Source of the DNA: an uncultured Alphaproteobacteria bacterium
GTDB lineage: Bacteria; Pseudomonadota; Alphaproteobacteria; RF32; CAG-239
Length of the DNA: 64,000 nucleotides
Assembly: GCA_949282205.1 (NCBI GenBank)
Contig: CASDOS010000059.1
Location: 77,922-141,921 of the forward strand
Reading direction: 5' to 3'
Below the pieces are notes generated by a model. That model worked only from the letters and a program-made list of their open reading frames with translations, did not search any database and was not told where the DNA came from. Positions 27,176 to 42,847 of this stretch are shown one piece after another. Position numbers and translations under genes: made by a program. Each line of letters begins with the position of its first letter. The first letter of the stretch is position 1.

Positions 27176-27326
27176 AGCGACAACTCCAACAACGGAAATA
27201 AAAAAACTAATTAATAGTAGTTTGTATAAAGTAAATATTTTATTAAAAACAGAGGAAACATTCGAGTTGGATAAAAATATTCGAGAACTATTGACAAAAC
27301 AAATATTTTCGGCAATAATAGAAAGA

Positions 27327-29639
27327 ATGTTAATGAAAGCAATGAAGAAAGCAATGTCAGAAAAACTAGATATGACTCAAATATACGCCGCGGCGCTACC
27401 GATAAAGAACAAACGTAATCTATTGGCGGTATATAAGGACTATGTTCAATTAGTCCGCAATTTGGAATATGTTGTCAAACAATATCGCCCGAACCACTTA
27501 TCGGGCTACCAATTGCTTCGGACCTACGGAGATGATATCACAGAAAATCCGTGGATGGTCGAAGATATGAGCAAAGAAGAAAAGGCTGCGTATTTAGATT
27601 TTGTAAACAATAAGCCGATGTCGGAAAATCTGCCGTATTGCTTTGTAAGTATAGATCATACGTCATCAAGTTTTAAGCAAGAGGGGAAAGGAATAATATC
27701 GACGCCGGACAATTACACGGCATACAGTCACAATCAATCCCTGCCGGCCCGAATAGAGCGTTATGTTGCGGCCTATCCGAAAGAGATAGGTTTAAAAGAA
27801 ACGGAATTTCTGATAGCCGGACGATGGAAGTTGCAATATCTGCTCGAAACAAACGGTCAAAGTCTAAAAGAAGCCTTTAATGATGACATAATGGAACAAC
27901 GGTTTAGCTGTATGTTGGATATTCTGACGTTATTACCGGAAAAAAGCAGTTATGACGAGCAAGAATTGTATGAAGCCCAAACGGAAGCGCAAGCATCGGC
28001 GTTAATAAATCCATTTGAGAATGTATTATTGAGCTCATTAACGACTTTGTCGGAAGAGAGCAACAAGATAATAAAAAGATTACTGGAGCTGCGCATTGGA
28101 GAGGGTTATATTTTTCAAGCCGAGAAAGAAGGATTGATAAGCTCAGCCTCATCATTTCAAGATTACCAAAATATCCGGCACTTAGTCCATCATCAATGGG
28201 ATACGTTAGACGGGTTGGGTAGATTTAACGGCGTAGAAACCGTAAAGAATATAAGTGTTCGGCGCCGTTATTTGGATTCATATTGTCGAATGTGTGATAA
28301 GCCCTTGGTAGAACGAGTAAAATCCTACATAAAGGTAGCCAAAGACATGTCGACGTTAGTATCAATGTTAAATCCGAATTTATTAATACGGGGCGAAAAT
28401 GAGAGTAATTCAAAATTCATAAATCGCGCCAAACAATACGCGAAAGCGCATCCGGAAGAAAAAATAATGCTAGAAGCGGGCTATGATTTCGGTTCGGACA
28501 AAAAAGAAGCGTTAATAAAGAATGCGGCCAAAGTATTACCGGAGGCGGAAATAATTGATATATGCGGCATGGATATAGAAAATTTTCTGGAACGCATAAG
28601 TGTATATTTGTATCGCAAAAATTATCTGGAAATATTCCAGCAAATAGAATACAAAATGAGTCAACATTGTTTGTTTTATGGGCGGAACGTACCGCCGTCA
28701 GGAGTATTGGCATATTACAAGAACTGCAAAATGATGAGTGCGGAAACTGCGGAGCGTTGGGGACAATACAAACAATTACGGAACGATTTGAGTCATCAGT
28801 ATTTGAATGAAGAATTGATATCAAGGCTGGAAAAGACATTTCCGCAATTCATGAAAGACACGTTTCTGTTGGAAGATAAGATAGACGAACAAACGCCGGT
28901 AGTAAGTCTTTTACATGATAACATATATCGCGCGTACCATAAAAACGGAAAAATAGTGGATATAGATTATACCAATCGAAAAATAGTCAACATCGAGTAT
29001 TTGAACAAAGAAAAGTCGCAATCCGGTTCAAAATCGGAAGAATATCGGAGCAAGACGAATAAAGAAACGACCGGAGCGCAAAAAATATATATGGAAGAAT
29101 ATAGAAACGGAGTGAGCATCGGCGTCAATAAAACCGATATAATATCGTGTCGCCTGCCCAACGGTACCACAATTGATTTGAGGAAAAAATCAATGATATA
29201 TCCGGACGGCAGTCGTTTATATTTCAACAGTGACGAGCATATATGTTTAACGATAAAAGGAGGCATAAAACTACTGACCGATAAAAATCTTCATATTGAG
29301 AATTACATAAACAACGGCAAATCGGTAAGTGTAACCAAGAATGAGAACATGAAATTTCCGAACGGACACGGTATTATAATTGATAAAAGAGGAAATTGGG
29401 AAAAAGAAGAATTTGTCGGCGCCAAAGGAAAAGCCGTAAAGGTGATGTTGGAAAGCGAGGAAGAAAAAATCGCGTTAAAGATGGATGACGGTACAACAAT
29501 AGCGGTATCAAAAGCGGGAATGTCAATCACGCATAATCAACAAATATTAACCTATGCAACCCGCAAGAAATTTGCCGAAAGTTATAATCCGTCAATATCG
29601 GCTGATTTATTAAAAAAGAAAAAAGGAAAAGAAAAATAA
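27327..29639 (+). CDS. Hypothetical protein with two HEPN-like domains and a beta-rich C-terminal region
   Basis: RHLVHH (28176-28193) and RNDLSH (28779-28796), each in a HEPN-like helical context. Start is among ATG 27327-27354, downstream of TTGACA 27291. Confidence 0.7.
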   Translation: MLMKAMKKAMSEKLDMTQIYAAALPIKNKRNLLAVYKDYVQLVRNLEYVVKQYRPNHLSGYQLLRTYGDDITENPWMVEDMSKEEKAAYLDFVNNKPMSENLPYCFVSIDHTSSSFKQEGKGIISTPDNYTAYSHNQSLPARIERYVAAYPKEIGLKETEFLIAGRWKLQYLLETNGQSLKEAFNDDIMEQRFSCMLDILTLLPEKSSYDEQELYEAQTEAQASALINPFENVLLSSLTTLSEESNKIIKRLLELRIGEGYIFQAEKEGLISSASSFQDYQNIRHLVHHQWDTLDGLGRFNGVETVKNISVRRRYLDSYCRMCDKPLVERVKSYIKVAKDMSTLVSMLNPNLLIRGENESNSKFINRAKQYAKAHPEEKIMLEAGYDFGSDKKEALIKNAAKVLPEAEIIDICGMDIENFLERISVYLYRKNYLEIFQQIEYKMSQHCLFYGRNVPPSGVLAYYKNCKMMSAETAERWGQYKQLRNDLSHQYLNEELISRLEKTFPQFMKDTFLLEDKIDEQTPVVSLLHDNIYRAYHKNGKIVDIDYTNRKIVNIEYLNKEKSQSGSKSEEYRSKTNKETTGAQKIYMEEYRNGVSIGVNKTDIISCRLPNGTTIDLRKKSMIYPDGSRLYFNSDEHICLTIKGGIKLLTDKNLHIENYINNGKSVSVTKNENMKFPNGHGIIIDKRGNWEKEEFVGAKGKAVKVMLESEEEKIALKMDDGTTIAVSKAGMSITHNQQILTYATRKKFAESYNPSISADLLKKKKGKEK

Positions 29640-29661
29640 ATTTTCAAAACCGTTTCCGAAA

Positions 29662-29804
29662 GTATTGACATCTCTGTCAGGGTAGGGTAAAAGAATAAGA
29701 AGAATGGCGAAGTGTCATAAAAGAAAACATTTCGCCGGAGTTGCGCTTAGAGATAAGCGCTTTTTTTATGTCCGGAGCAAAGGTAAAAAACTTTTGCTCT
29801 TTTA
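29662..29804 (+). promoter_or_regulatory. Promoter element with palindrome TGACA-N4-TGTCA plus a three-hairpin leader (two terminator-like)
   Basis: GTATTGACATCTCTGTC (29662-29678); hairpins 29706-29736, 29743-29760 (+T7), 29775-29800 (+T4). Confidence 0.6.
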
Positions 29805-29831
29805 TTTTGAATAAAAACAGGAGATTAAAAT

Positions 29832-30674
29832 ATGACAATACAAAACGAGGTAAGCAAAGCGGTTTATATAGCCGACGGAAATACAGCGACATTTGAAATA
29901 CCTTTTTACTTTTTTGACAACGAGATAGCGGTATACGGCAACAACGAGATAACAGCGTTAGAGCAAGGGAAGGACTACACGGTAACCAATTATGAGAATA
30001 GCGTCGGCGGAGAAGTGGTGTTTACGACCGCGCCGCAGTCAGGGAGCAGAATTACCATTTTGCGAGATGTAGCGTTGACACAGCTGATAACTTTTATAGA
30101 GGGGGAAGATTTTCCGGCTCAAGATTATGAAAATTCGCTAGATAAAATGATAATGGCGCTTCAGGAAATAAAAGAAACGACCAAACGTATGTTAGTTATG
30201 TCCCCTGGAGCAACAATAAGTCAGGAAGAATTTTACAAGATGATAGAAACGGTTAATCAAAATCTGGAATTTTTGACTAATATTCCCCGGATGTTGGACG
30301 AGATACAAAGTCTTTACGAATCATTTTTTGACAATGTGAGTAACACGGTTCAAGCCGGGGACAAACAACCGATAAGTTCGGAAGGTGTCTGGAATTACAT
30401 AAACGAGAATGGAGCCAAGAAATACAGTAATATCAGCATAGCGACAAGTTCGATACAAGAGGATGAAACGTATGAAAACTATCCATATTGCGCCGAGATA
30501 AGTATATCTGAAGCCAAATCGACACATATACCGTTTGTAATTTTCGACATGGAAGCGGCAGAAAGCGGAAACTATGCGCCGTTAGCCGAAGCCAAAGAAG
30601 GGAAAGTCTGCATATATCTGAAGGATAAACCTGTAACGGAAACGCTGACAATTCCTGCGCTTGTATTGCAATAA
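29832..30674 (+). CDS. Short phage tail-fibre-like protein (T7 gp17-like N-terminal attachment domain)
   Basis: Y.ADG.T.TF.IPF.F...I.VY...G.DYTV...GG.V.FTTAP..G..ITI.R...E..LDK..M..QE pattern; RBS AGGAG. Confidence 0.8.
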   Translation: MTIQNEVSKAVYIADGNTATFEIPFYFFDNEIAVYGNNEITALEQGKDYTVTNYENSVGGEVVFTTAPQSGSRITILRDVALTQLITFIEGEDFPAQDYENSLDKMIMALQEIKETTKRMLVMSPGATISQEEFYKMIETVNQNLEFLTNIPRMLDEIQSLYESFFDNVSNTVQAGDKQPISSEGVWNYINENGAKKYSNISIATSSIQEDETYENYPYCAEISISEAKSTHIPFVIFDMEAAESGNYAPLAEAKEGKVCIYLKDKPVTETLTIPALVLQ

Positions 30675-30683
30675 GGAGGGGAG

Positions 30684-30992
30684 ATGGAAAAAGTAAAAGA
30701 ACTGATAGCCAATTACAGTCTCTGGGGATTGTTTATCGGTTTAGCGACAATAATGATAAAGCCGTTTATATCGATTCGCCAAACAATGCGAGATATGCTG
30801 ATAACGTTTTTAGTAAGTATGTTATGCGGCCTATTGGCGGAATACATGGACATACCAACGCCGGTAAAATACGGGATATCCGGGGTATGTGGATTATTTG
30901 CGGTACGGATATACATGATAGCCGACAGTTTATTAAAACGAGCGCAAAGAGATCCGTTTAATTTCATCAAGAATATTAAAGGCAAACAATGA
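30684..30992 (+). CDS. Putative phage holin
   Basis: 102 aa, about 3 TM segments, basic C-terminus; lies between the tail gene and the spanin pair. Confidence 0.65.
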   Translation: MEKVKELIANYSLWGLFIGLATIMIKPFISIRQTMRDMLITFLVSMLCGLLAEYMDIPTPVKYGISGVCGLFAVRIYMIADSLLKRAQRDPFNFIKNIKGKQ

Positions 30993-31267
30993 AAGTGATA
31001 AGAGTGCTTGTCTGTTTGTTAGCGGTTGCCGTATTAAGTGCGATATATTATCGCGAAGATGCGGCGACCGCGCGTCAGCTGATGACGCAATACAAGCAGA
31101 ATCAAGAAATTTTATTTAAGAATTTACAAAGGAGCTACCATGAGAAAAGGGAGCTTGAAGAAAAAAATGAGGCTTTGGAACAAGCGGTATCTGAAGAAAC
31201 AATATCGTTTGATTGGCATGCGGATATTAGCAATAGTGCTGTTATTAAACAGTTGCAAAAGCGTTGA
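30989..31267 (+). CDS. Putative i-spanin (Rz-like)
   Basis: Single N-terminal TM followed by a coiled coil; overlaps a lipoprotein ORF at its 3' end. Confidence 0.6.
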   Translation: MKVIRVLVCLLAVAVLSAIYYREDAATARQLMTQYKQNQEILFKNLQRSYHEKRELEEKNEALEQAVSEETISFDWHADISNSAVIKQLQKR

Positions 31268-31373
31268 GTATGTGTATGTGGAAACGCCGAGAGAACCGAT
31301 AAGTTGTATTGAGCGAATAAAGACGCCGTTGGATATGGCAAAGTGCTTAAATGAGTATAAAACAAAGTATTAG
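31218..31373 (+). CDS. Putative o-spanin (Rz1-like) lipoprotein
   Basis: MRILAIVLLLNSC lipobox, 51 aa, extra Cys residues, in a different frame overlapping the i-spanin. Confidence 0.65.
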   Translation: MRILAIVLLLNSCKSVEYVYVETPREPISCIERIKTPLDMAKCLNEYKTKY

Positions 31374-31455
31374 TCAAAAAAGACAAAAAAGTTGTTGACA
31401 AGAAACTAAAAAGCATATATATTACGCAAAGCTAACCTATTAAAAACATATAATT

Positions 31456-31893
31456 ATGGAAATGAAAAAAATTTCTAAGGAAATTAATGACCAGCTGTTC
31501 AAAGTGGATGGCCGTCAGGTGTCAATGTTAGAGTTCGTGGACATGAGCGTATCTGCTCATAAGTCTAGAAGTGACGAACAAAATTTCACGACAGTTCGTC
31601 GAGGAAAAGAAATTGTCAAAATTCCTAGAAGCATTCGCTTTAACGGAATTGAATTATCACAAGAACAGTTCCGCGCTCTGGTAGATATCCGCATTGAGGA
31701 ATTGTCTCCGGTAGGGTTCCGTAATCTGCTCGGTGCGTTAAGCATTTATGCGCCACACTTGTTTAAGGACAAGGCAATATTCAGCCAGACAGAAGACTTC
31801 GGAAAATCTGCAATCGGCCGTCGCGCGTTAGCGTACAAGGCTGAACAGAAGAGAAACAAAGAACTGTCCCGCGGAGGAGAACTTTACCTCTAA
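31456..31893 (+). CDS. Hypothetical protein
   Basis: 145-aa ORF with its own TTGACA promoter candidate and terminator (about 31917-31953). Confidence 0.7.
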   Translation: MEMKKISKEINDQLFKVDGRQVSMLEFVDMSVSAHKSRSDEQNFTTVRRGKEIVKIPRSIRFNGIELSQEQFRALVDIRIEELSPVGFRNLLGALSIYAPHLFKDKAIFSQTEDFGKSAIGRRALAYKAEQKRNKELSRGGELYL

Positions 31894-32070
31894 GCCGGAC
31901 ATAAACTAAAAAAAGAAAACAGCTTCCTCCTTTAAGGACGAAGCTGTTTTTTTTGTTTAAGAAGAGTAAGGAAAAGCGGAATTAAAAAGTATCTGATACA
32001 CTTCAAGCTCCACGAATTGATATTGCATTTTATTTTTTATATCAATATAATGCGAAGAAGGAGTAAGTAA

Positions 32071-32346
32071 ATGCCAAAATTAAAAAAAGCCTTTTATTTT
32101 ATACTGGGATGGAGTGTCGTTCCGTTTTTATTAAGTATTCCTTATGCTTATATCTTGCAAGCTGACAACTTAAAAGAATTTAAGGCATATTGGTTTATTG
32201 CCTATTTCATCATTTACTTGATTTTTCCATGGTTGTATAAAGAAAACATACAAAAGCGTGTTCCGAATAGATATGCTTTTTATAGTATGATTTACGTCGT
32301 ATTTTTTATTTTAGGCTTGTGTCTGTTTGCGTATGTTTTAGAATAA
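32071..32346 (+). CDS. Small 3-TM membrane protein (possible orphan immunity protein)
   Basis: RBS AGGAG, 91 aa, hydrophobic, AT-rich. Confidence 0.65.
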   Translation: MPKLKKAFYFILGWSVVPFLLSIPYAYILQADNLKEFKAYWFIAYFIIYLIFPWLYKENIQKRVPNRYAFYSMIYVVFFILGLCLFAYVLE

Positions 32347-32392
32347 GTTAATTTTCAAATACAGTAAAAAGAAACGGTAGAAAGGAAGACAA

Positions 32393-32857
32393 ATGAAGTG
32401 GTTGGTTTTAGTTTGTTTTTTATTGTCATTTAATGCGAATGCCCAAGAAGGACGTTGCCCTGCAGATGAGAGTTTGGCTATTGATAATCTGGAGCAAGAG
32501 CTGAACAATTGTGCAGTAGTTGATTATGGAAAAGACGAATGGCAAACATCAAAAATGTTGAAAGCTTATGACCGCTCCATTGACTGTATGCAGAAAGTAG
32601 CACACCATTTATTTGATAAATACTATACGCACTATAATGCAAGCGTTAAGAAAAATTTTGATAATTATGTGAGTGCTGCGACGGATATAAGTTTTGATAT
32701 CAACCAAAGAAGTGATATGGGAAGAAGTATTCGTCTAGCAGAAGTTTATGTTTTGGAAGCTGCCGGACGCACGCATGTTATGGTAAAAAATCTTGTCAAA
32801 GATTACATCAAAGAAATACGCGATGAGTGTGATGACGCACATGAATTTGACAACTAA
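32393..32857 (+). CDS. Secreted helical Cys-containing protein, paralog of 34729-35187 (putative orphan immunity / lysozyme inhibitor)
   Basis: Signal peptide MKWLVLVCFLLSFNANA; N- and C-termini nearly identical to the 34729 ORF. Confidence 0.8.
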   Translation: MKWLVLVCFLLSFNANAQEGRCPADESLAIDNLEQELNNCAVVDYGKDEWQTSKMLKAYDRSIDCMQKVAHHLFDKYYTHYNASVKKNFDNYVSAATDISFDINQRSDMGRSIRLAEVYVLEAAGRTHVMVKNLVKDYIKEIRDECDDAHEFDN

Positions 32858-32890
32858 CCCCAACCACATAGTTTAGAATATCAATAAATA
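32793..32890. repeat. 98-bp exact direct repeat with 35123-35220
   Basis: TTGTCAAAGATTACATCAAAGAAATACGCG...GTTTAGAATATCAATAAATA spans both paralog 3' ends plus downstream DNA. Confidence 0.92.
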
Positions 32891-32905
32891 TCAAAACAAG
32901 GAGAT

Positions 32906-32959
32906 AAAGAAAACGTAGAAACAAAAAAGGATGGATAAAAATCCATCCTTTTCATTGTT
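32906..32959. repeat. Copy of the tRNA-Met terminator region (37737-37790)
   Basis: AAAGAAAAC(G/A)TAGAAACAAAAAAGGATGGATAAAAATCCATCCTTTTCATTGTT occurs at both sites. Confidence 0.9.
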
Positions 32960-33153
32960 AGTAGAGCCAGAGAGGTTAAACCAGAATTTAAACCAGCAAT
33001 AAAAGCAGAGGTATTCCTATCACACCGAGAAGAACTTTTGGCAAAACAATGCCAAATAGTTTACTTGTATACCATGCTGATGAAAATCCAGAAAAACTTC
33101 TGTATATCTTAATTTCAAATAAATCAGTTGACTAGAAGGTTAATTCGTTCTAA

Positions 33154-33256
33154 ATAAAAAGTGTCCTCGGCTACTGGGAACGAAATCGAAATCGCCCAGT
33201 CAGTATCTATTAGCACGCTTGGATGCGGCTAATAGGATCCGAGGATATTTTTTTAT
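33154..33256 (+). ncRNA. Candidate structured RNA (three-way junction)
   Basis: P1 GTGTCCTCGG/CCGAGGATAT (G-U pairs favour the + strand), P2 ACTGGG/CCCAGT, P3 CTATTAGC.CGC/GCG.GCTAATAG; GC-rich within AT-rich DNA. Confidence 0.55.
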
Positions 33257-33364
33257 ACAAATGGACGTGTACAAAGAGCCAAACCACATGAATCAAGCCC
33301 CAAAGCATCAAATGAGAATATCTGCAACTATAATAAAAAAAGCCTCGGTAAAACCGAAGCTTTA

Positions 33365-33383
33365 TGTTGGTAGCGAGGGGGAG
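33365..33383 (-). repeat. att-like 19-bp copy of the tRNA-Met 3' end
   Basis: TGTTGGTAGCGAGGGGGAG is identical to 37787-37805 and has its own terminator-like hairpin at 33334-33363. Confidence 0.88.
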
Positions 33384-33481
33384 GTTAAACCAGCAATAAA
33401 AGCAGACGTATTCCTCTCACACCGAGAAGAACTTTTGGCAAAACAATGCCAAGCACGTCTGTTAAGCGAGAAGTTGAAAAG
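33384..33481. repeat. ~80-100-bp element present in three copies (about 32989-33055, 33384-33481, 36122-36204)
   Basis: AAAAGCAGA.GTATTCCT.TCACACCGAGAAGAACTTT.GGCAAAACAATGCCAA(GCACGTCTGTTAAGCGAGAAGTTGAAAAG). Confidence 0.9.
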
Positions 33482-33587
33482 TGCAAAAAATATTAAATTA
33501 AATAGAAGCTAAAATATCTCCACAATACCTAATATGCTTATATTTTAATAGGAAAATACAAAAAAATAAAATCTAATAATCCCAAAT

Positions 33588-33734
33588 GTATTGACATCTA
33601 TGTCGTAGTGTAATATCAATTATACTAATGTGGATTTTTGTATTTAAAATTCTGCATTAATAAGCTCCCTAAACGGGAGTTTTTATGTTTTAAATTAATC
33701 AAGAGTCACGATACTATTATCGTGACTCTTTTTT
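33588..33734 (+). promoter_or_regulatory. Promoter element GTATTGACATCTATGTC plus a three-hairpin leader ahead of the GH108 gene
   Basis: 16/17 match to 29662-29678; hairpins at about 33626-33659, 33663-33681 (+T run) and 33701-33730 (+T run). Confidence 0.6.
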
Positions 33735-33747
33735 GGGAGTAAAAAAA

Positions 33748-34716
33748 ATGACAGATTATTTTTTTGATGATACAGAAACAATTTTAAAGAAAAACGAGAA
33801 AAAGAAAAAACTTAATGAATTATTGGATAGATATGGTAGCATTGAGAATATTGAGAAAAATGCTATTGGAGTAGATGGATATGATTATATGTTTGCTAAC
33901 ACTGACAATTTGATTAACGAAGTTTTAGAAGAAAGAACTTTGAGGCAAGTATCAAGACTAGCAAAACAAGAAGAAAAGTCTAGTGAATATGATAAAATTA
34001 GAAAAGAAGATGAGTTAGAAAACATTTCTAGATACATACCAAGTGAAGGTTTTAATGATGTTTATCATTCTAAATTAGATGAAGATGGACGCGTTATTTA
34101 TCTTGGTACAGAACAGCATGAAGGAGGATATTCTGATAGAAAAAATGATTTGGGAGGAAAAACAAATTATGGTATAACTCAAGATTCATTAGATGAATAC
34201 AATAATTTATGGAATAGTTATCTTAAAAAAGGTAAAAATTTCCCCAAAGATGTAAGACAATTGAAAGCTCTACAGGCAAAGCAGATATTAGATGAAATGT
34301 ATTTTCAGAGATATGGTATTGATAAGATTAAAAATACTATAATTACTAGAAATGTTTTTGATGAAGAAATGAATCAAGGAACAAATGCAGGAAAAGATAT
34401 TGCAGAATTAGTTAATAAGGTAAAAGGAACTAATTTTCCCTTAAACAAAGTGATAAGTGATAAATTAGCAGTAGCGATAAACAATCTATCATCAGAAGAA
34501 AGTATAAAGATTAATGATTTGTTGACATTGAAACGGATGGAAAGGTACTTTGAGAGTGTAGATAAAAAGCCAAATCCTAATATCAATAATTTACGAGGAT
34601 GGTATAACAGAGTACAAAGCTATCATAGTCAACCAAAAGTTTTTGAAAAACTTTATAAAGATAAGATTGACTATTATATCCAAAAGAAATATCCTCATTA
34701 CTATAACAAGCAGTAG
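33748..34716 (+). CDS. Glycoside hydrolase family 108 muramidase with a ~120-aa N-terminal extension
   Basis: HEGGYSDRKNDLGGKTNYGIT, FD..MNQG and GWYNRV motifs; RBS GGAG before ATG 33748. Confidence 0.85.
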   Translation: MTDYFFDDTETILKKNEKKKKLNELLDRYGSIENIEKNAIGVDGYDYMFANTDNLINEVLEERTLRQVSRLAKQEEKSSEYDKIRKEDELENISRYIPSEGFNDVYHSKLDEDGRVIYLGTEQHEGGYSDRKNDLGGKTNYGITQDSLDEYNNLWNSYLKKGKNFPKDVRQLKALQAKQILDEMYFQRYGIDKIKNTIITRNVFDEEMNQGTNAGKDIAELVNKVKGTNFPLNKVISDKLAVAINNLSSEESIKINDLLTLKRMERYFESVDKKPNPNINNLRGWYNRVQSYHSQPKVFEKLYKDKIDYYIQKKYPHYYNKQ

Positions 34717-34728
34717 AAAGGGAAATAA

Positions 34729-35187
34729 ATGAAGTGGTTGGTTTTAGTTTGTTTTTTAGTAACGTTCAATGCGAATGCCCAAGAAGGACGTTGTCCTGCT
34801 GATGAAGGTTCGGCTATTGATAAGCTGGAGCAAGAGTTGCACGATTGTAAGATTACATATGGAGAAACGCCTTCCACAGCAGATATGAATAATGCAGCTT
34901 ATAATGCTGTTGATTGTATTGTAGGCGTAGCTCATAAAATATTTGATAGATATTATGCAACAACGGCACAAGAGAGTAAAGACAGGTTTGATAAATTAGT
35001 AACAGCGGTTTATGACCATAGTCATCATCTTGTGCATGACAGTGATTTTGCAAGAGAGACCTATACCGGTACAATGTACAATACAATAGCAATAGGAAAA
35101 GCCTATGTAATAATGAAAGAAATTGTCAAAGATTACATCAAAGAAATACGCGATGAGTGTGATGACGCACATGAATTTGACAACTAA
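34729..35187 (+). CDS. Secreted putative immunity protein / lysozyme inhibitor cognate to GH108
   Basis: Signal peptide, 4 Cys in the mature part, 12 nt downstream of the muramidase; the function is inferred from gene context. Confidence 0.75.
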   Translation: MKWLVLVCFLVTFNANAQEGRCPADEGSAIDKLEQELHDCKITYGETPSTADMNNAAYNAVDCIVGVAHKIFDRYYATTAQESKDRFDKLVTAVYDHSHHLVHDSDFARETYTGTMYNTIAIGKAYVIMKEIVKDYIKEIRDECDDAHEFDN

Positions 35188-35235
35188 CCCCAACCACATA
35201 GTTTAGAATATCAATAAATAGCAGAATAGGGGGAA

Positions 35236-35991
35236 TTAATCCCCCTTTTTTGTTATATTAAGATAGAAGAGTTGTGTCAGAATTTCGAGCAATGTATTTC
35301 CTTCATTTGTAAAAGGAAGTATGTCAGCCATTGTTCCGCACCTATTATCGCAATATTTGTTTTCAGCGTAAAATTTACTATAAAAATCCAAAGTGTTTTT
35401 TCTTATCTGCGCAAGATACTGATTCATTTCTTCTTGAACTTGTGGCGTAAAACCTATAGAAATTTCTTGTTTAATTTTTGTGGTCAAACAATCATTGATT
35501 AAGGTATTTCGTGCAACCATATCAGCAGTTGTAAGATGTTCTGAGGTTGTTTTATATTGTTCAACGCAAGTATCGTATGCAATTTGAGCTTTTTGTTCTG
35601 CCTCAGTTTTATCATTTTCAGGGGTTCTTTGAATAATTGGTAATTTTTCGAGCTTTTCTTTTATACCATATTCATTAGCCGAAAAACATCCGCTGGTAAC
35701 ACCCAAATTAACAAAATTGTTTCCATCTTTATAGTATATATGCGCCAAATCTATACCTTGCTGATTAATTAAAATCGGATTGCCCTCCTTAATTTCGTGA
35801 ATGATAATTTTACGAGGTTCAGCATTCATACAAACAGAACAATAGTCATAGATTTCATTTTGCTGTTTGAGAATATCTGTGGCTTTGGTGATGACATCAT
35901 TATCTGTAATATCGTAGCAAATGTCAGATAAGGCAAGATTCGCTTGAAAACATATGATTAAGGTACAGAGTATAAGTTTAGCTTTATTCAT
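35236..35991 (-). CDS. Secreted Cys-rich protein whose C-terminal domain resembles the immunity paralogs
   Basis: Real start MNKAKLILC (ATG 35991). C...TTADM.....DC...Y..GTM pattern matches DC...STADM...DC...YTGTMY of the 34729 ORF. Confidence 0.7.
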   Translation of the reverse strand: MNKAKLILCTLIICFQANLALSDICYDITDNDVITKATDILKQQNEIYDYCSVCMNAEPRKIIIHEIKEGNPILINQQGIDLAHIYYKDGNNFVNLGVTSGCFSANEYGIKEKLEKLPIIQRTPENDKTEAEQKAQIAYDTCVEQYKTTSEHLTTADMVARNTLINDCLTTKIKQEISIGFTPQVQEEMNQYLAQIRKNTLDFYSKFYAENKYCDNRCGTMADILPFTNEGNTLLEILTQLFYLNITKKGD

Positions 35992-36084
35992 GTTTTTTCC
36001 TAAATATGCAACTAATTGATTGGTGCACAGTAATATCGACTTTCTTAGTTTAATGCATAGAAAATACAAATCAATAAAATAATA

Positions 36085-36122
36085 GATAAGATTGACTATT
36101 ATATCCAAAAGAAATATCCTCA
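36085..36122. repeat. 38-bp exact copy of the GH108 gene 3' end (34660-34697)
   Basis: GATAAGATTGACTATTATATCCAAAAGAAATATCCTCA, fused directly to the ~80-bp element. Confidence 0.9.
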
Positions 36123-36213
36123 AAAGCAGACGTATTCCTATCACACCGAGAAGAACTTTGGGCAAAACAATGCCAAGCACGTCTGTTAAGCGAGAAGTTG
36201 AAAAGGGCAAAGA

Positions 36214-37614
36214 TTAAGCAATAATCTCATCTTCATTGATTAAAATAAGATTGCTGTTTTCTCTAGCCATATCCATAAGATGTTCGGTAAAGCCGCTTTT
36301 AGAGAATAAGCCGTATGTGAGTGTATAGCCGTTAAAATCAGGTGTTTTGCATTTTTCCAATAATTTGGCATAAACCCCGACATCAACCGGTTTATCTTGT
36401 TTGAAATATTTGCATTCGGCAGCAAAGATACGCTTGTGGCTTTCATCAATAGCGACCACATCTATCTGAATATTTTTATCCCAATAAGAACCGATACGCG
36501 AGGGAACAAAATCAATTTGCTTGATTTTGCAAAGATTGAGGAATATTTCCTGACAGATTTCTTCATAAACAAAAGCGACATGATTATCTATAAAGTTGTG
36601 CGATAACTTGTCTAGAACAAAATTCAAGTTTCCTAACTCAAGTTCTCCTTTATACGGAAAAACAAATTTGAACCAAAACCGTATAAAAATATCTTTAATG
36701 AAGTATAGACCTTTGCGGCTTTTCTCGGGACATTTTTCCGTAATCGGTACCTTTTTTTCAAGAAGATACAGACCTTGCAGCGTTTCAAGATAAGGGCTTA
36801 AACGATTGTTTTCCACTTGCATGGCGGAGGCAATATCCGATAATTTATGATTTTCTCCGGCAACAGCCTGCATCACGGAAAAGTAATTTACGGGCTCTTT
36901 AACTTCATTGTTTAACAAAAACGAGGGTTCCTCATATAAGAAACCGTTTTTATTTAAGACCACCCGAGAGATGTTGTCATTTAAGGAGTTAGAATTATCA
37001 AAAAACTCTAAATATTTCGGCACACCACCCGCAACGGAATATAGTTCCACAAGTTCCGCAAAAGATTTGTGAGTATAATATTTTCTTAAATCCATAAAGG
37101 GCAGGGGCGATAATCTGATTTGAGCCGTTCGCCGACCATATAAAGGACTTTTTTCGGATAAAACTTGTTTAGTCATCATATTGATATACGAACCGCAAAT
37201 AATGACGATAATGTTGTGTTTTGAAAGCACTTCATCCCAAATCTTCTGGAAGATAGAGGTAAAAGCCGGATTAGTATTCACCAGATATTGAAATTCATCA
37301 ATAACGAGGACTTTTGTTTGAGGAGATTCAAGAGAGGCAAAAATTTTAAATAATTCAATCCAATCATCAAAACTAGCTTTGGCGATAAAATCTTGTTGAG
37401 CAAATGAAGCCAAAGCACCGGCAAAGCGTTTGCGGCTTTGCGGTTCAGATTCCTCGGTAGCTAAAAAGTATAAAGCCGGTTTATCTTTAATAAACTCTTG
37501 GATAAGAGCGGTTTTACCAATTCTTCTGCGTCCATAAACAACCACAAAAGAGTGATTATTGCGATATTCTTGCTCTAAATCATAAAGTTCTTTTTCTCTT
37601 CCGATAAATTCCAT
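36214..37614 (-). CDS. AAA+ (archaeal-type) ATPase with C-terminal DUF234 PD-(D/E)XK nuclease
   Basis: FIGREKEL, YGRRRIGKT, VIDEFQY, SPLYGRRT, GGVPKYL, QIDVVA...AECKY. Confidence 0.9.
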   Translation of the reverse strand: MEFIGREKELYDLEQEYRNNHSFVVVYGRRRIGKTALIQEFIKDKPALYFLATEESEPQSRKRFAGALASFAQQDFIAKASFDDWIELFKIFASLESPQTKVLVIDEFQYLVNTNPAFTSIFQKIWDEVLSKHNIIVIICGSYINMMTKQVLSEKSPLYGRRTAQIRLSPLPFMDLRKYYTHKSFAELVELYSVAGGVPKYLEFFDNSNSLNDNISRVVLNKNGFLYEEPSFLLNNEVKEPVNYFSVMQAVAGENHKLSDIASAMQVENNRLSPYLETLQGLYLLEKKVPITEKCPEKSRKGLYFIKDIFIRFWFKFVFPYKGELELGNLNFVLDKLSHNFIDNHVAFVYEEICQEIFLNLCKIKQIDFVPSRIGSYWDKNIQIDVVAIDESHKRIFAAECKYFKQDKPVDVGVYAKLLEKCKTPDFNGYTLTYGLFSKSGFTEHLMDMARENSNLILINEDEIIA

Positions 37615-38076: not shown

Positions 38077-38547
38077 ATGGAGAGAATTATGGAAATCAAA
38101 TGTCCAAAATGCAGTTCAAAGAGATATGTTAAAAACGGAGTAGTTTTCGGTTGGCAGAGATATAAGTGTAAAGAATGCGGCTACCAATATACAAAACCCG
38201 GCGAGCATGGAAAACCTTTGGATACATGGCTGACTTGTCACGGTTTGTATATGTTCGGTTTATCAATGCGGCAAATAGCAAGGATAGTAGGATTATCCGC
38301 TCAAACGATATCGCGTTGGATAAGAAAGTGGCATCAAGTATTTATGCATGAAATCGGCTCCAAGCAGACACTATATTCCGTAAATGCGGAAAATGTGGTT
38401 GAGTGTCTGGGACTGAATAAAAAGGATAATTTGATGGTATCAAGTACACATCTGAAATCCGGAGCGGAAATTCATATATTGATTAAGCTGCCGATACCGT
38501 CTGAAGAAATAAAATCCGCCCCGAAGTCCCCATCATTACAAAAGTGA
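38077..38547 (+). CDS. IS1 InsA-like zinc-ribbon + HTH protein without a DDE domain
   Basis: CPKC...KNG...QRYKCKECG and GLSMRQIARIVGLSAQTISRWI; no catalytic ORF follows. Confidence 0.75.
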   Translation: MERIMEIKCPKCSSKRYVKNGVVFGWQRYKCKECGYQYTKPGEHGKPLDTWLTCHGLYMFGLSMRQIARIVGLSAQTISRWIRKWHQVFMHEIGSKQTLYSVNAENVVECLGLNKKDNLMVSSTHLKSGAEIHILIKLPIPSEEIKSAPKSPSLQK

Positions 38548-39746: not shown

Positions 39747-42700
39747 ATGTTTTCAGCTCGTTTTATAGAACGTCCGCGTTTATCATTTGTCATTTCGATA
39801 GTTATCGTTTTAGTCGGTACGATTGCGCTGTTTAATTTACCGATAGCGTTATATCCGGACATTACGCCGCCGCAAATATCCGTATCTGCGACCTATCCTG
39901 GAGCATCAGCGGAAGTAATCGCCAAAACGGTGGGAATTCCGTTGGAAGACGAGATTAACGGTGTGGAAGATATGTTATACATGAGTTCCACATCGGAAGA
40001 TTCGGCCTATAATTTGGCGGTAACTTTTAAGACCGGTGTAGATCCGGACATGGCGCAGGTAAAAGTACAAAACCGTATCCAACAAGCAACGTCAAAGTTG
40101 CCTGATGAAGTAACCAGACAAGGGATAACGGTAACCCGAGCCTCGTCAAACATATTAGGTTTCTTTGTATTTTATTCGCCGAAAAGCACCCATAGCGAAC
40201 AAGAGATAGCCGACTATGTATTTAATAACATCGAGCGCCCGTTATCGCGAATATCGGGAGTTGGCTCGGTAGACGTGTACAGTTCGCAATTAGCGATACG
40301 CGCGTGGCTGAATTCGGATAAGATGGCGGCGTTAGACATAACGGTAGATGATGTGTACAGTGCCATATCGGGACAAAACTATCAACCGTCATTGGGTAAA
40401 GTCGGATCCGTACCCACGCAAACGAGCAATCAAATGGTTTACACTTTACAAACGACCGGACGACTAAGCGAAGCGGAGGAATTTGAAAACATAATCGTAA
40501 GAACGGCGGAGCAGGGCGGCTTAGTATATTTAAAGGACATAGCCCGAGTGGAATTAGGCCAAGAAGATTACGTCATCAACGGTTTGCACAACGGTAAAAG
40601 TTCGGTAGCGATATCAATCGGCTTGTCCTCGGGTTCGAACGCGATAGAAACGATGGAGCAAATCAAAACCACGTTAGCCGAATTATCCGAAAACTTTCCC
40701 GAAGACATGGAATATATCATCAGCTACGATTCGACCAAATACATAGATGCATCGGTAGAAGAAGTGGTTTTCACGTTAATATTGACTTTATTGTTGGTAA
40801 TTGCCGTATGTTATTTTTTCTTGCAAGACACATATTCCACGATGATACCGGCACTAACGATACCAGTATCGATATTAGGAACCTTTGCCGTAATATTGGC
40901 GCTAGGATATAGTATCAACTTATTCACCTTGTTTGCGTTATTGTTGGCGATAGGTTTGGTAGTGGATGACGCGATAGTAGTAGTGGAGCGTGTTATGCAC
41001 TTGCTGCAACATGAGAATATGAGCGGACGCGAAGCCACCATAAAGGCGATGGGCGAGATATCAGGCGCATTGGTAGCAACATCACGATATTTATTCCGGT
41101 AGGATTTTTGGATGGCATCACCGGTCAGATATATCAACAATTCTCGGTTACCATTTGTACGGCGATACTATTTTCTTTGTTAAATGCTTGAACATTGTCG
41201 CCGGCCTTATGTTCTTTATTGTTGCAACGTCCGAAAGAAAGGAAAGAAGGATTTTGGTATAAAGTCAATACGAGCATCAGCAACATTATCCACCGTTATT
41301 CGATAGTCGTATCAATAATTGCGAAGAAGATACCGATAATAGCTATAATTTTCGCGGGATTACTGATTTTGGCGGTAGTATTGTTTAATATGTCGCAAAC
41401 CTCATTTATTCCGGAAGAAGACCAAGGTGTGGCGGTAATGAGTGTTCAGTTGCCGGAAGGTGCGAACAAAAAAAAGACGGCGGATTTCATGGATAAGATA
41501 CGCGAGGTATTGAAGACAGAACCGTCAATCGAAGGGGTATCGGATGTTATCGGATATAACATGATAGACGGCCGAGGCGAAAACGTGGCGATGAGTTTTA
41601 TCGTACTGCGTCCATGGGGAGAAAGAAAAGATCCGTCGCAACATTCGACAGCGATAGTCAATCGCTTGCGTCAAAAGTTGGCTTCTTTCACGGGAGCCGA
41701 GATACAATTATTCAAGATGCCGGCGATACAAGGACTAGGTAATTCAAACGGTTTGGATATTCGTTTGGAATCAAGATTGGTAACGGATTATCAAAAGTTG
41801 GATGCAACGTTACAAAGTTTCTTGAGTAATTTGAATCGTATGCCGGAAATATCTTATGCGTACACAACATTTACCGCGCATACGCCGAATATCTTTTTAG
41901 ACATCGACCGCACCAAAGCGGAAAGTATGAAAGTACCGGTAGCGAATATTTTTTCGACATTAGAGAGTTACTTAGGTTCAGCCTATGTTAATGACATTAA
42001 CTTAGGTACGCAAGTCAACAAAGTGATGTTGCAGTCGGATTGGATGTATAGAGAAAGCGTCGATAACATCAACGACATATATATAGCCAATCGCGAGGGA
42101 AAGATGGTACCGATGCGCGGCATGGTAACCTTGCGTAAAGCCTTGGCGCCACGAGTAGTACAACGATACAATCAATTTCCGGCAGCTTCAATAACTGCGG
42201 TACAATCATCGGGTACATCGACCGGATCGGCCATGTCTGCGGTGGAAACATTGGTTAAGCAGTTGCCGAAAGGGTTCAATATCGAATGGTCGACAATGAG
42301 TTTCCAAGAGAAGTTGGCACATGGGCAAATAGGTTACTTAATCGCTTTGGCAATAATCTTTGCATACTTGTTCTTAGTTGCGCAATACGAGAGTTTTATT
42401 GTTCCGGTACCGGTGTTATTATCATTAGTCGTTGCGATTAACGGTGCATTATTAGGATTGTTATTAAGCGGTATGTCGTTAAGTGTATATGCGCAATTAG
42501 GCTTGATATTGCTGATAGGGTTGGCGGCAAAAAATGCGATATTGATTGTTGAGTTTGCCAAAGACGAACGCGCGAAAGGAGCAACGATAGTAAACTCGGC
42601 ATTAAAAGGCTTGCAAGAAAGGTTCCGTGCGGTAATGATGACGGCGTTTGCATTTATCTTAGGAGTATTCCCGATGGTCATTGCGTCAGGAGCGGCAGCG

Positions 42701-42847
42701 GAAAGCCGAAAAGCGATAGGCGTGCCGGTATTTTGGGGCATGATAGCAGCCACGACAATTGGTATGTTGATAATACCATTGATGTACGTTTGGGTACAGA
42801 CCTTGTTTGAGAAGTATAAAAACCGTCGTCAAAGCAAACAAGGATAA
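39747..42847 (+). pseudogene. RND efflux permease (AcrB/HAE1 family), disrupted by a frameshifting deletion and an in-frame stop
   Basis: [39 protein letters not shown]. Frame change at about 41085 and TGA at 41189-41191. Confidence 0.85.

Follow-up and report, generated by a model that had tools for sequence, protein, structure and literature searches.

A family of phage late-type promoters links the scattered modules of a T7-like podovirus element with polymorphic toxin genes in a genus of uncultured gut Alphaproteobacteria

The window analyzed here, i.e., the whole 64,000-nucleotide stretch taken from contig CASDOS010000059.1 of an uncultured alphaproteobacterium (lineage RF32, CAG-239), carries two groups of forward-strand genes, each behind the same type of promoter and leader. 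One group comprises genes for a short tail fibre, a holin and an overlapping spanin pair, and the other a polymorphic toxin gene with a GH108 muramidase domain together with a gene for an immunity-like protein (Table 1). A first-pass annotation, made from the letters of the window, had reported a 17-nt sequence ahead of both and had proposed that they are scattered modules of one host-domesticated, podovirus-like system under antiterminator or repressor control. The 17-mer, GTATTGACATCT(C/A)TGTC, is present as exact copies at both of the places named (29662-29678 and 33588-33604) and above chance: allowing up to three mismatches, five matches were found in the window versus 0.20 expected, with five or more in 0 of 100 shuffles, and TTGACA-N4-TGTC was found four times versus 0.09 expected.

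We then scanned the draft genome that holds the window (G000; 1.98 Mb, 59 contigs, 99% complete; genomes, contigs and loci carry G, C and L numbers below). TTGACA-N4-TGTC occurred 12 times versus once in a backward control, and the pattern TATTGACW-N3-4-TGWC occurred 10 times versus once, with nine of these 10 matches lying upstream of phage-type element or toxin genes. Hence, the motif is not common ahead of unrelated genes, and the promoter family has at least nine members in G000, spread over at least five loci. In the family architecture, a conserved CC(G/A)AA(A)-type stretch stands just upstream of the -35 region TATTGACA, which is followed by a 17-nt spacer containing T(C/T)nnTG(T/A)C plus a G run and by a -10 element, TAtAAa; with this -35, spacing and -10, each member has the appearance of a strong sigma-70 promoter. 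Another hexamer, -10-like (AAGAAT, CATAAT, TATCGT or TAATGT) and followed by GG, lies 5-7 nt past the -10. The form nAnnnT+GG was found at six element promoters in G000, and AG takes the place of GG at two more toxin promoters. This hexamer sits about where transcription should start and is a candidate pause element; 3' of it, ahead of the leader hairpins, comes a class-specific conserved stretch. A table of 32 promoters was collected with a regular expression requiring the -35, the -10, the -10-like hexamer and two purines ([GA]G), and in most of the 32 the conserved stretch (CCGAAAG/CCAAAC) abuts the -35. The full-architecture expression gave seven matches in G000, six of them at element or toxin genes, versus three in the reversed genome, and a looser expression was needed to find the promoter on C23.

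Two features named in the first-pass annotation lost weight in this comparison. GTAG(G/T)GTAA does follow both window promoters, but its distance from the -35 differs by 3 nt between the two sites and the rest of the family is without it, so we do not count it as shared. The GACA-N4-TGTC palindrome is present at both window sites but is weakened as the defining site, since relatives do not keep it strictly and often show TGAC or an N3 spacing. An Rfam scan found three tRNAs in the window and no match in six promoter loci; therefore, the strong promoters found at the ends of contigs do not belong to rRNA or tRNA genes.

All seven G000 leaders examined have at least two T-tailed hairpins between promoter and start codon. 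The three hairpins per leader described previously stood up in part: the last two are T-tailed in both window leaders and the first is present in leader 1, but its counterpart in leader 2 looks weak by eye. The tail-less first hairpin of leader 1 is kept in five of five aligned tail-fibre leaders; indeed, all three tail-fibre leader hairpins are kept in five species, and five of the 38 predicted pairs have compensatory changes. The promoter followed by two T-tailed hairpins precedes the tail fibre gene in 10 of 11 loci fetched from relatives, the promoter of L038 lying further upstream. Scanning five relatives with the promoter pattern gave 38 matches versus six in the control, and 14 of the 38 coincide with TerS, scaffold, tail-fibre or toxin genes that had already been located. 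G011, which is 100% complete and the one complete genome lacking portal, tail fibre and toxin domain, gave three matches versus one in the control.

Table 1. Features of the window and positions of the other family promoters in G000 (positions without a contig name refer to the window).
Feature	Position	Strand	Details
Late-type promoter 1	29653..29707	+	Conserved upstream stretch TTTCCGAAAG; promoter also conserved ahead of the tail fibre gene in relatives
Promoter 1, core elements			-35 TTGACA 29665-29670; GACA-N4-TGTC 29667-29678; -10 TAAAAG 29688-29693
Promoter 1, -10-like hexamer	29700-29705	+	AAGAAT, then GG
Leader 1	29706..29808	+	Hairpin without T tail 29706-29736; T-tailed hairpins 29743-29760 and 29774-29800
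Short tail fibre, T7-type N-terminal adaptor domain	29832..30674	+	phrog_1640, E 4.6e-23; Pfam PF03906 below cut-off
Holin	30684..30992	+	Weak matches: phrog_6384, E 1.3e-5; Pfam LydA holin below cut-off
Overlapping spanin pair (ORFs)	i-spanin 30989-31267; o-spanin 31140-31373	+	o-spanin in another frame
145-aa protein	31456..31893	+	No family match; membership of the system uncertain
Orphan paralogue of the immunity-like protein	32393..32857	+	53% identical; signal peptide
Late-type promoter 2	33579..33633	+	-35 33591-33596; GACA-N4-TGTC 33593-33604
Promoter 2, -10 elements		+	-10 TATCAA 33614-33619; -10-like TAATGT 33626-33631, then GG
Leader 2	33662..33736	+	T-tailed hairpins 33662-33682 and 33701-33730
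Polymorphic toxin: helical N-domain (~residues 1-70) and GH108 muramidase	33748..34716	+	Pfam PF05838, E 2e-16; AT-rich
Immunity-like periplasmic protein	34729..35187	+	Signal peptide; four conserved Cys
Family promoter	C26:26093		Ahead of TerS-TerL, two small membrane proteins, portal, g113
Family promoter	C26:20674		Ahead of scaffold, capsid, g125, tail tubular A, tail tubular B (two ORFs), internal proteins
Family promoter	C23:34657		Ahead of two tail-fibre-associated proteins, 459 and 349 aa
Family promoters	C54:4034, C38:1930, C20:137, C40:137		Ahead of toxin genes

Downstream of the remaining promoters in G000 lie the genes that had been predicted for a genome-wide scan, namely those for a T7-like portal, a capsid and tail tubular proteins, together with more toxins (Table 1). 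The portal encoded on C26 belongs to phrog_332 (E 7e-109), and the internal proteins include a 1749-aa polyvalent protein. Homologues of the two C23 proteins lie 3' of the tail fibre gene in G001 and 3' of the tail tube gene in G020. Six integrase matches were found in G000, none of them on C26, C59, C23 or C29. No match to the T7 RNA polymerase family was found in G000, by a profile that was also silent in all control genomes. Tail tubular protein B is encoded by two adjacent open reading frames (ORFs) in all species seen (G000 C26:14471-17678, minus strand; L020:2471-5678), the first of which comprises the family's N-terminal ~60 residues plus Head_fiber_dimeric domains (E 2.4e-27).

The element is conserved across the genus. 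Of 24 further species of the genus, 21 have a portal homologue (56-98% identity), as do four of 16 genomes from outside it (23-27%), and the tail fibre is likewise present in 21 of 24, at 36-93% identity. The nearest portals among 50,697 phage records, which come from BcepC6B-like, Stenotrophomonas and Pelagibacter podophages, are no more than 35% identical, and those in IMG/VR no more than 29% identical to the G000 portal. The modules are also dispersed, since portal and tail fibre genes lie 128 kb (G016), 116 kb (G022) and 38 kb (G008) apart on single contigs. The tail fibre-holin-spanin locus adjoins htpG/ankyrin or an 805-aa gene in all 11 fetched loci, and these conserved flanks span species with HtpG 78-99% identical. 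The structural cluster retains the divergent neighbour up609 in six fetched loci and has undergone insertions and rearrangements with its ORFs still open; in four species the tail tube B gene has come to lie ahead of TerS, and in G014 the portal gene has changed place. Against the closest relatives (synonymous divergence, dS, 0.4-0.6), the ratio of nonsynonymous to synonymous substitution (dN/dS) is 0.03-0.04 for TerL, 0.05 for the portal and 0.02-0.03 for the capsid, and for the tail fibre and holin genes it is about 0.01-0.2. Therefore, the tail/lysis genes are neither strain-specific nor decaying, and the proposal of scattered modules of a host-domesticated podovirus-like system is supported by a gene set that is genus-wide, dispersed and under strong purifying selection. 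A tailocin, which the first-pass annotation had also considered, fits poorly, since the capsid, portal, TerS and TerL genes are all conserved under purifying selection.

Within the tail fibre-lysis cassette, the C-terminal part of the tail fibre is fast-evolving (dN/dS of the gene 0.10-0.20), and the holin is 70-98% identical in 11 of 11 relatives' loci, with a dN/dS of 0.01-0.03. The spanins were assigned from their size and overlap, an N-terminal membrane segment and an LLNSC lipobox seen by eye, and the pair had no family match in Pfam or PHROG searches. Both spanins are present in nine of the 11 relatives' loci (L034-L037, L039-L044; one with partial matches only), and neither was found in L038. 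Pfam and PHROG searches gave no endolysin in the G000 lysis cassette, nor did the 11 loci of relatives show one. The tail/lysis genes had been described as host-like in composition and the GH108 pair as AT-rich, which agrees with a GC fraction of 0.41 at 30000-31000 versus 0.26-0.28 at 33500-34500 (genome, 0.377). The gene for the 145-aa protein lies 3' of the spanins in five of 11 relatives' loci and has its own near-consensus sigma-70 promoter at 31395-31423 (11 of 12 matches) and a strong terminator. On the other side, the 805-aa protein (27222-29639, plus strand) has no Pfam or PHROG match; its gene is the upstream neighbour of the tail-fibre promoter in nine of 11 relatives' loci, and by eye it contains two R-x4-H motifs (IRHLVHH, RNDLSH) reminiscent of HEPN domains.

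The GH108 call for the window toxin proved sound, the PF05838 match scoring 60.6 bits versus a cut-off of 21.2 and including an EGGY motif in which E125-G126-G127 are (nearly) invariant in the GH108 alignment. Its N-domain is common to proteins on C54, C38 (two) and C40. The toxin C-termini are GH108 with or without PG_binding_3, a T6SS_VgrG3-like_C domain (PF21277, E 7.5e-27), or others without a family, and the toxins of relatives include a glycine-rich 442-aa form and others; a conserved N-terminal region combined with alternative C-terminal toxin domains is the arrangement of polymorphic toxins. The N-domain was found in 20 of the 24 genus genomes and in none of the 16 outside. Its AlphaFold2 model is a small helical domain (pLDDT 79, ~70 ordered residues) with no usable fold match in the ESM Atlas, a best VIA-wide Z of 5.7 (a spliceosomal protein) and a best E of 2.4 in BFVD, and an N-domain hidden Markov model run over all six-frame ORFs of G000 found toxin genes only and no structural protein. 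Toxin genes directly follow the portal gene in G022 and G004, and the interval between g113 and the scaffold gene holds, in G016 and G021, toxin cassettes that have family promoters of their own. The T6SS (type VI secretion system) proteins TssC and Hcp were not found in the 99%-complete G000.

A signal-peptide ORF follows each complete toxin gene, and the toxins themselves lack a signal peptide. The immunity ORF is co-directional with the toxin gene in the window and convergent on C54, C38 and C40, where it has its own simple promoter-like region and no leader hairpins. The predicted complex of the GH108 domain with the window's immunity-like protein scored 0.64, versus 0.01 for the best of three controls; the mark for this score is reached by 58 of 80 solved complexes and two of 110 mismatched pairs, counts that hold only roughly here because self-made alignments were used. 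At least 91% of contacts agreed between model runs, with a partner pLDDT of at least 87, and the predicted interface lies over toxin residues 123-131, including the invariant catalytic Glu125. The model thus supports binding of the immunity-like protein to the GH108 domain over Glu125.

Repeats surround the window cassette (32369-36216): a 39-nt exact repeat at the 3' end of the GH108 gene (34659-34697) recurs at 36084-36122, a 95-nt repeat occurs at 33001, 33398 and 36122, and the two immunity paralogues share flanks of 130-144 nt. These repeats suggest recombination scars of cassette shuffling, and they make the long TTG-start form of the ORF at 35236-36210 (minus strand) doubtful. In L038 (G016:C10:160494-164330), the first 111 toxin residues are 98% identical to those of the window toxin, and the neighbouring genes are 45-91% identical; from these identities, the cassette looks to have been exchanged recently between the two species. 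Further along the window, an InsA-like helix-turn-helix (HTH) gene lies at 38077-38547, and at 39747-42847 (plus strand) an AcrB-family ORF of 451 aa covers profile positions 2-440 of 1021 and is followed by a separate 550-aa ORF, which may represent a split or frameshifted efflux pump.

A candidate regulator, the 199-aa protein reg199 (C29:2022-2621), was traced from a G001 protein encoded upstream of the packaging genes. Its gene closes an 'early' operon, e401-e174-reg199, that is divergent from a gene for a repressor with HTH and Peptidase_S24 domains (CI/LexA-type, self-cleaving), with AT-rich palindromes in between. The three genes are conserved as a unit, which adjoins corA in three species; for e401 and e174, which have no known function, a part in replication is conceivable. 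reg199 was found in 20 of the 24 genus genomes (three matches being weak) and in none of the 16 outside; a word-index search returned five close homologues only, and its profile found nothing convincing among 250 other alphaproteobacterial genomes (one match, E 0.0014). The reg199 model has a pLDDT of ~90 over most of residues 60-199, with a drop between 110 and 140. Residues 131-199 align weakly to region 4 of extracytoplasmic function sigma factors (Z 5.0-5.2, root-mean-square deviation 2.6-2.9 A over 57-61 residues), the best such match being 4cxf_A (Z 5.2, 2.9 A over 61 residues) with many sigma region 4 matches below it. In G011, a weak relative of reg199 (G011:C13:26821-28076; E 1.6e-9) has a promoter-pattern match ~0.9 kb downstream, and the two may belong to another related element.

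Considered together with their gene content, conservation, scatter and selection, the family promoters join every module of a scattered T7-like element, found across the genus, to a family of polymorphic toxins. We put at roughly 70% the probability that they form one late-promoter regulon of a domesticated, gene transfer agent (GTA)-like element of T7-like podovirus origin, plus toxins, under antitermination. In such a regulon, the family promoters would drive the TerS-TerL-portal, scaffold-capsid-tail tube-internal, tail-fibre-associated, tail fibre-holin-spanin and toxin modules of an element that became fixed in the genus chromosome and was broken up into separate loci. RNA polymerase would start at these promoters and stop in the leaders, and a promoter-loading factor would make it terminator-resistant, following the logic of lambda Q, AlpA and GafZ; we regard this mode of control as probable. 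The candidate for the factor is the sigma region 4-like reg199 behind its CI-like switch on C29, and DNA-packaging particles, lysis and toxins would then arise jointly on induction. With its genes dispersed across more than 100 kb, the element could not package itself, so that its particles would be unable to carry their own genome; on balance, then, a GTA-like status appears the better assumption.

Several points weigh against this reading. The collecting expression required the -35, -10 and -10-like hexamer, so that these features are partly shared by construction and the independent support lies in the location of the matches, not in the consensus. The -10-like hexamer could alternatively be a second -10, and start site, pause and termination in the leaders are read from sequence alone; eight sequencing runs contain the DNA stretch, all of them as contigs, and none is recorded as RNA. 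The agreement of portal identity with HtpG identity (rho 0.79, n=18, without G005; 0.56, n=19, with it), which speaks for domestication, is descriptive only, since kin are not independent. In G005, HtpG is 96% but the portal only 56% identical to that of G000, i.e., inheritance has not been purely vertical, and the canonical cluster was not found in that genome. G001 and G005 instead hold a contiguous, prophage-like gene set (L053-L055; G005 C3, G001 C7), with portals 56-60% identical and tail fibres of its own; its leaders, too, have the promoter plus terminators, and a reg199 homologue lies upstream of its packaging genes, no more than a few kb away, which favours reg199 as the regulator. 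A phage-like repressor switch and both terminase subunits have been kept, which implies that in this clade active phage ancestry is either recent or continuing. Three toxin contigs, C20, C38 and C40, are short, with repeats at their ends, which leaves copy number and linkage uncertain, and some of them may be strain variants. The known Q families PF03589 and PF06530 had no match in G000, and neither had PF06323, for which the search was silent in every control genome too. As to reg199, a Foldseek search of the PDB gave nothing at E <= 0.001 and the fold matches are weak (Z ~5); G009 has the structural genes but gave no reg199 match, and G011, where these genes are lacking, has a weak relative. 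That reg199 is the factor that makes polymerase terminator-resistant is tentative, with odds slightly short of even.

The shared element could instead be the target of an activator or of a phage-type sigma-like factor, with reg199 acting in initiation and the hairpins serving as attenuators or insulators that damp leaky expression of lethal genes. The resemblance of the reg199 C-terminus to sigma region 4, the domain that binds the -35, and the conserved stretch abutting the -35 would both suit such a factor. However, a perfect TTGACA, a 17-nt spacing and an acceptable -10 should make an activator unnecessary, tandem T-tailed hairpins in every leader examined are needed for antitermination but not for initiation control, and the reg199 core of ~140 aa gave no sigma region 2 match in a structure comparison whose matches were themselves weak. 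We thus consider control at initiation improbable. More improbable still is an ordinary prophage, active or decaying, accompanied by unrelated toxins, in which the promoter consensus would be generic and the scatter an assembly artefact. TTGACA and TAtAAT are indeed generic, the draft has 59 contigs, and the CI-like switch, the two terminase genes and the contiguous versions in G001 and G005 are what a prophage would show. Against such a prophage speak the nine of 10 pattern matches that fall at element or toxin genes, the 38-128 kb between portal and tail fibre on single contigs of relatives, the flanks kept across species and the core-gene dN/dS values of 0.02-0.05; moreover, the element contigs have no integrase, and no portal exceeds 35% identity among phage records or 29% in IMG/VR.

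For the toxins, more than one role is possible. At the furthest, a T7-like podovirus would have been made by the genus into a particle that delivers protein toxins and is switched on by a new, sigma-4-like antiterminator family, in addition to GTA-like packaging. The N-domain would load peptidoglycan hydrolases and, in relatives, proteins resembling pore formers into the particle or onto it, the toxins would be ejected into the periplasm of rivals, and the periplasmic immunity proteins would define kin. We regard this extended version as unlikely, though less so than control at initiation. With nearly an even chance, the regulon stands as set out above and its toxins are not particle cargo but the missing endolysins, or else soluble bacteriocins like pesticin and colicins, with the N-domain serving in uptake and holin-spanin lysis in release. 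No other peptidoglycan hydrolases were found in the regulon, whose lysis cassettes showed no endolysin; the toxins lack signal peptides where their immunity-like partners have them, as is the case for pesticin and Pim; and the immunity genes on C54, C38 and C40 are set apart by simple promoter-like regions of their own. Yet an endolysin needs neither a cognate periplasmic inhibitor nor polymorphism, the N-domain is small, with no receptor-binding or translocation match in fold searches, and the toxin genes of several species are located within the head-gene cluster, a position in keeping with a structural link but no proof of one.

Similar logic is known from phages and their derivatives. The phage promoter PR' looks constitutive, with a factor-binding element inside it, a sigma-dependent -10-like pause element and downstream terminators, and in Pseudomonas aeruginosa the self-cleaving repressor AlpR controls the Q-like antiterminator AlpA, which acts on the chromosomal alpBCDE lysis cassette and pyocin release. 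The family resembles the lambdoid Q systems (Q-lambda, Q21, Q82) in its constitutive-looking promoters with candidate factor-binding and pause elements, in its leader terminators, and in having the candidate regulator gene last in an early operon under a CI-type repressor. It differs in that no Q family was detected and the candidate has a sigma-4-like rather than a known Q fold, and in that at least nine promoters at at least five loci take the place of one, with toxin cassettes among their targets. AlpA differs in controlling lysis genes only, whereas here capsid, tail, packaging and toxin genes share control. Two papers bear on the lambdoid Q proteins (PMC6606751, PMC9388147). In the study of Tran and Le (PMC11150451), GafZ is reported to carry a sigma-factor-like HTH, to recognise a palindrome located between -35 and -10 and to allow polymerase through terminators; they liken its site to the Q and AlpA binding elements and name AlpA as a promoter-loaded antiterminator. 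The GTA of Caulobacter crescentus with its GafYZ (GafA in Rhodobacter capsulatus) is likewise a chromosomally fixed phage-derived element of Alphaproteobacteria with accessory loci, but it is siphovirus-like, and GafZ has a single target promoter, whose activation at a degenerate -35 requires GafY plus IHF; in the present family the -35 matches the consensus and the element stands at every module.

GTAs in general offer a likeness in gene content: they retain genes for structure, packaging and lysis but none for replication or integration, in split loci conserved along the host lineage, and the present gene set may match this, although e401 and e174 could act in replication. They differ in that a phage-type repressor switch is retained here and polymorphic toxin-immunity cassettes belong to the same regulon. 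The FpGTA of Faecalibacterium, reported in 2026, is described as having two loci, being probably podovirus-like and residing in a gut bacterium (PMC12946183); its host phylum and gene set differ from ours, in which the portal is T7/BcepC6B-like and at most 35% identical to any phage record. The toxin cassettes themselves resemble the T6SS pair VgrG3/TsiV3 and pesticin/Pim in pairing a muramidase-type domain with a signal-peptide immunity-like protein, and T6SS effectors in their conserved N-terminal part and swappable C-terminal domains. Unlike T6SS effectors, they occur without detectable TssC or Hcp, have an N-domain of no known family and phage late-type promoters, and often lie in the head-gene cluster.

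Compared with Q, GafZ and the known GTAs, the system thus differs in its T7-like origin in an alphaproteobacterial gut lineage, its set of promoters sharing one element, its candidate regulator of no known family and the toxin cassettes in its regulon; a literature search, which drew on partial texts, found no account of such a system and no report linking toxin-immunity cassettes to GTA-like elements under shared control. Since at least nine promoters share a core, a pause-like element and tandem terminators, both the regulon and the antiterminator can be tested with simple reporters. If the reading is true, the element would be a second independent case in the Alphaproteobacteria of a phage turned into a host-controlled particle, derived from a podovirus rather than a siphovirus and found in an uncultured gut lineage, and it would add a new regulator family beside Q, AlpA and GafZ. 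Should the toxins in fact be carried by the particle, it would be a podovirus-derived counterpart of contractile injection systems. Interbacterial antagonism would also be linked to GTA-like elements, both by shared control and by the location of toxin cassettes in the head-gene cluster.

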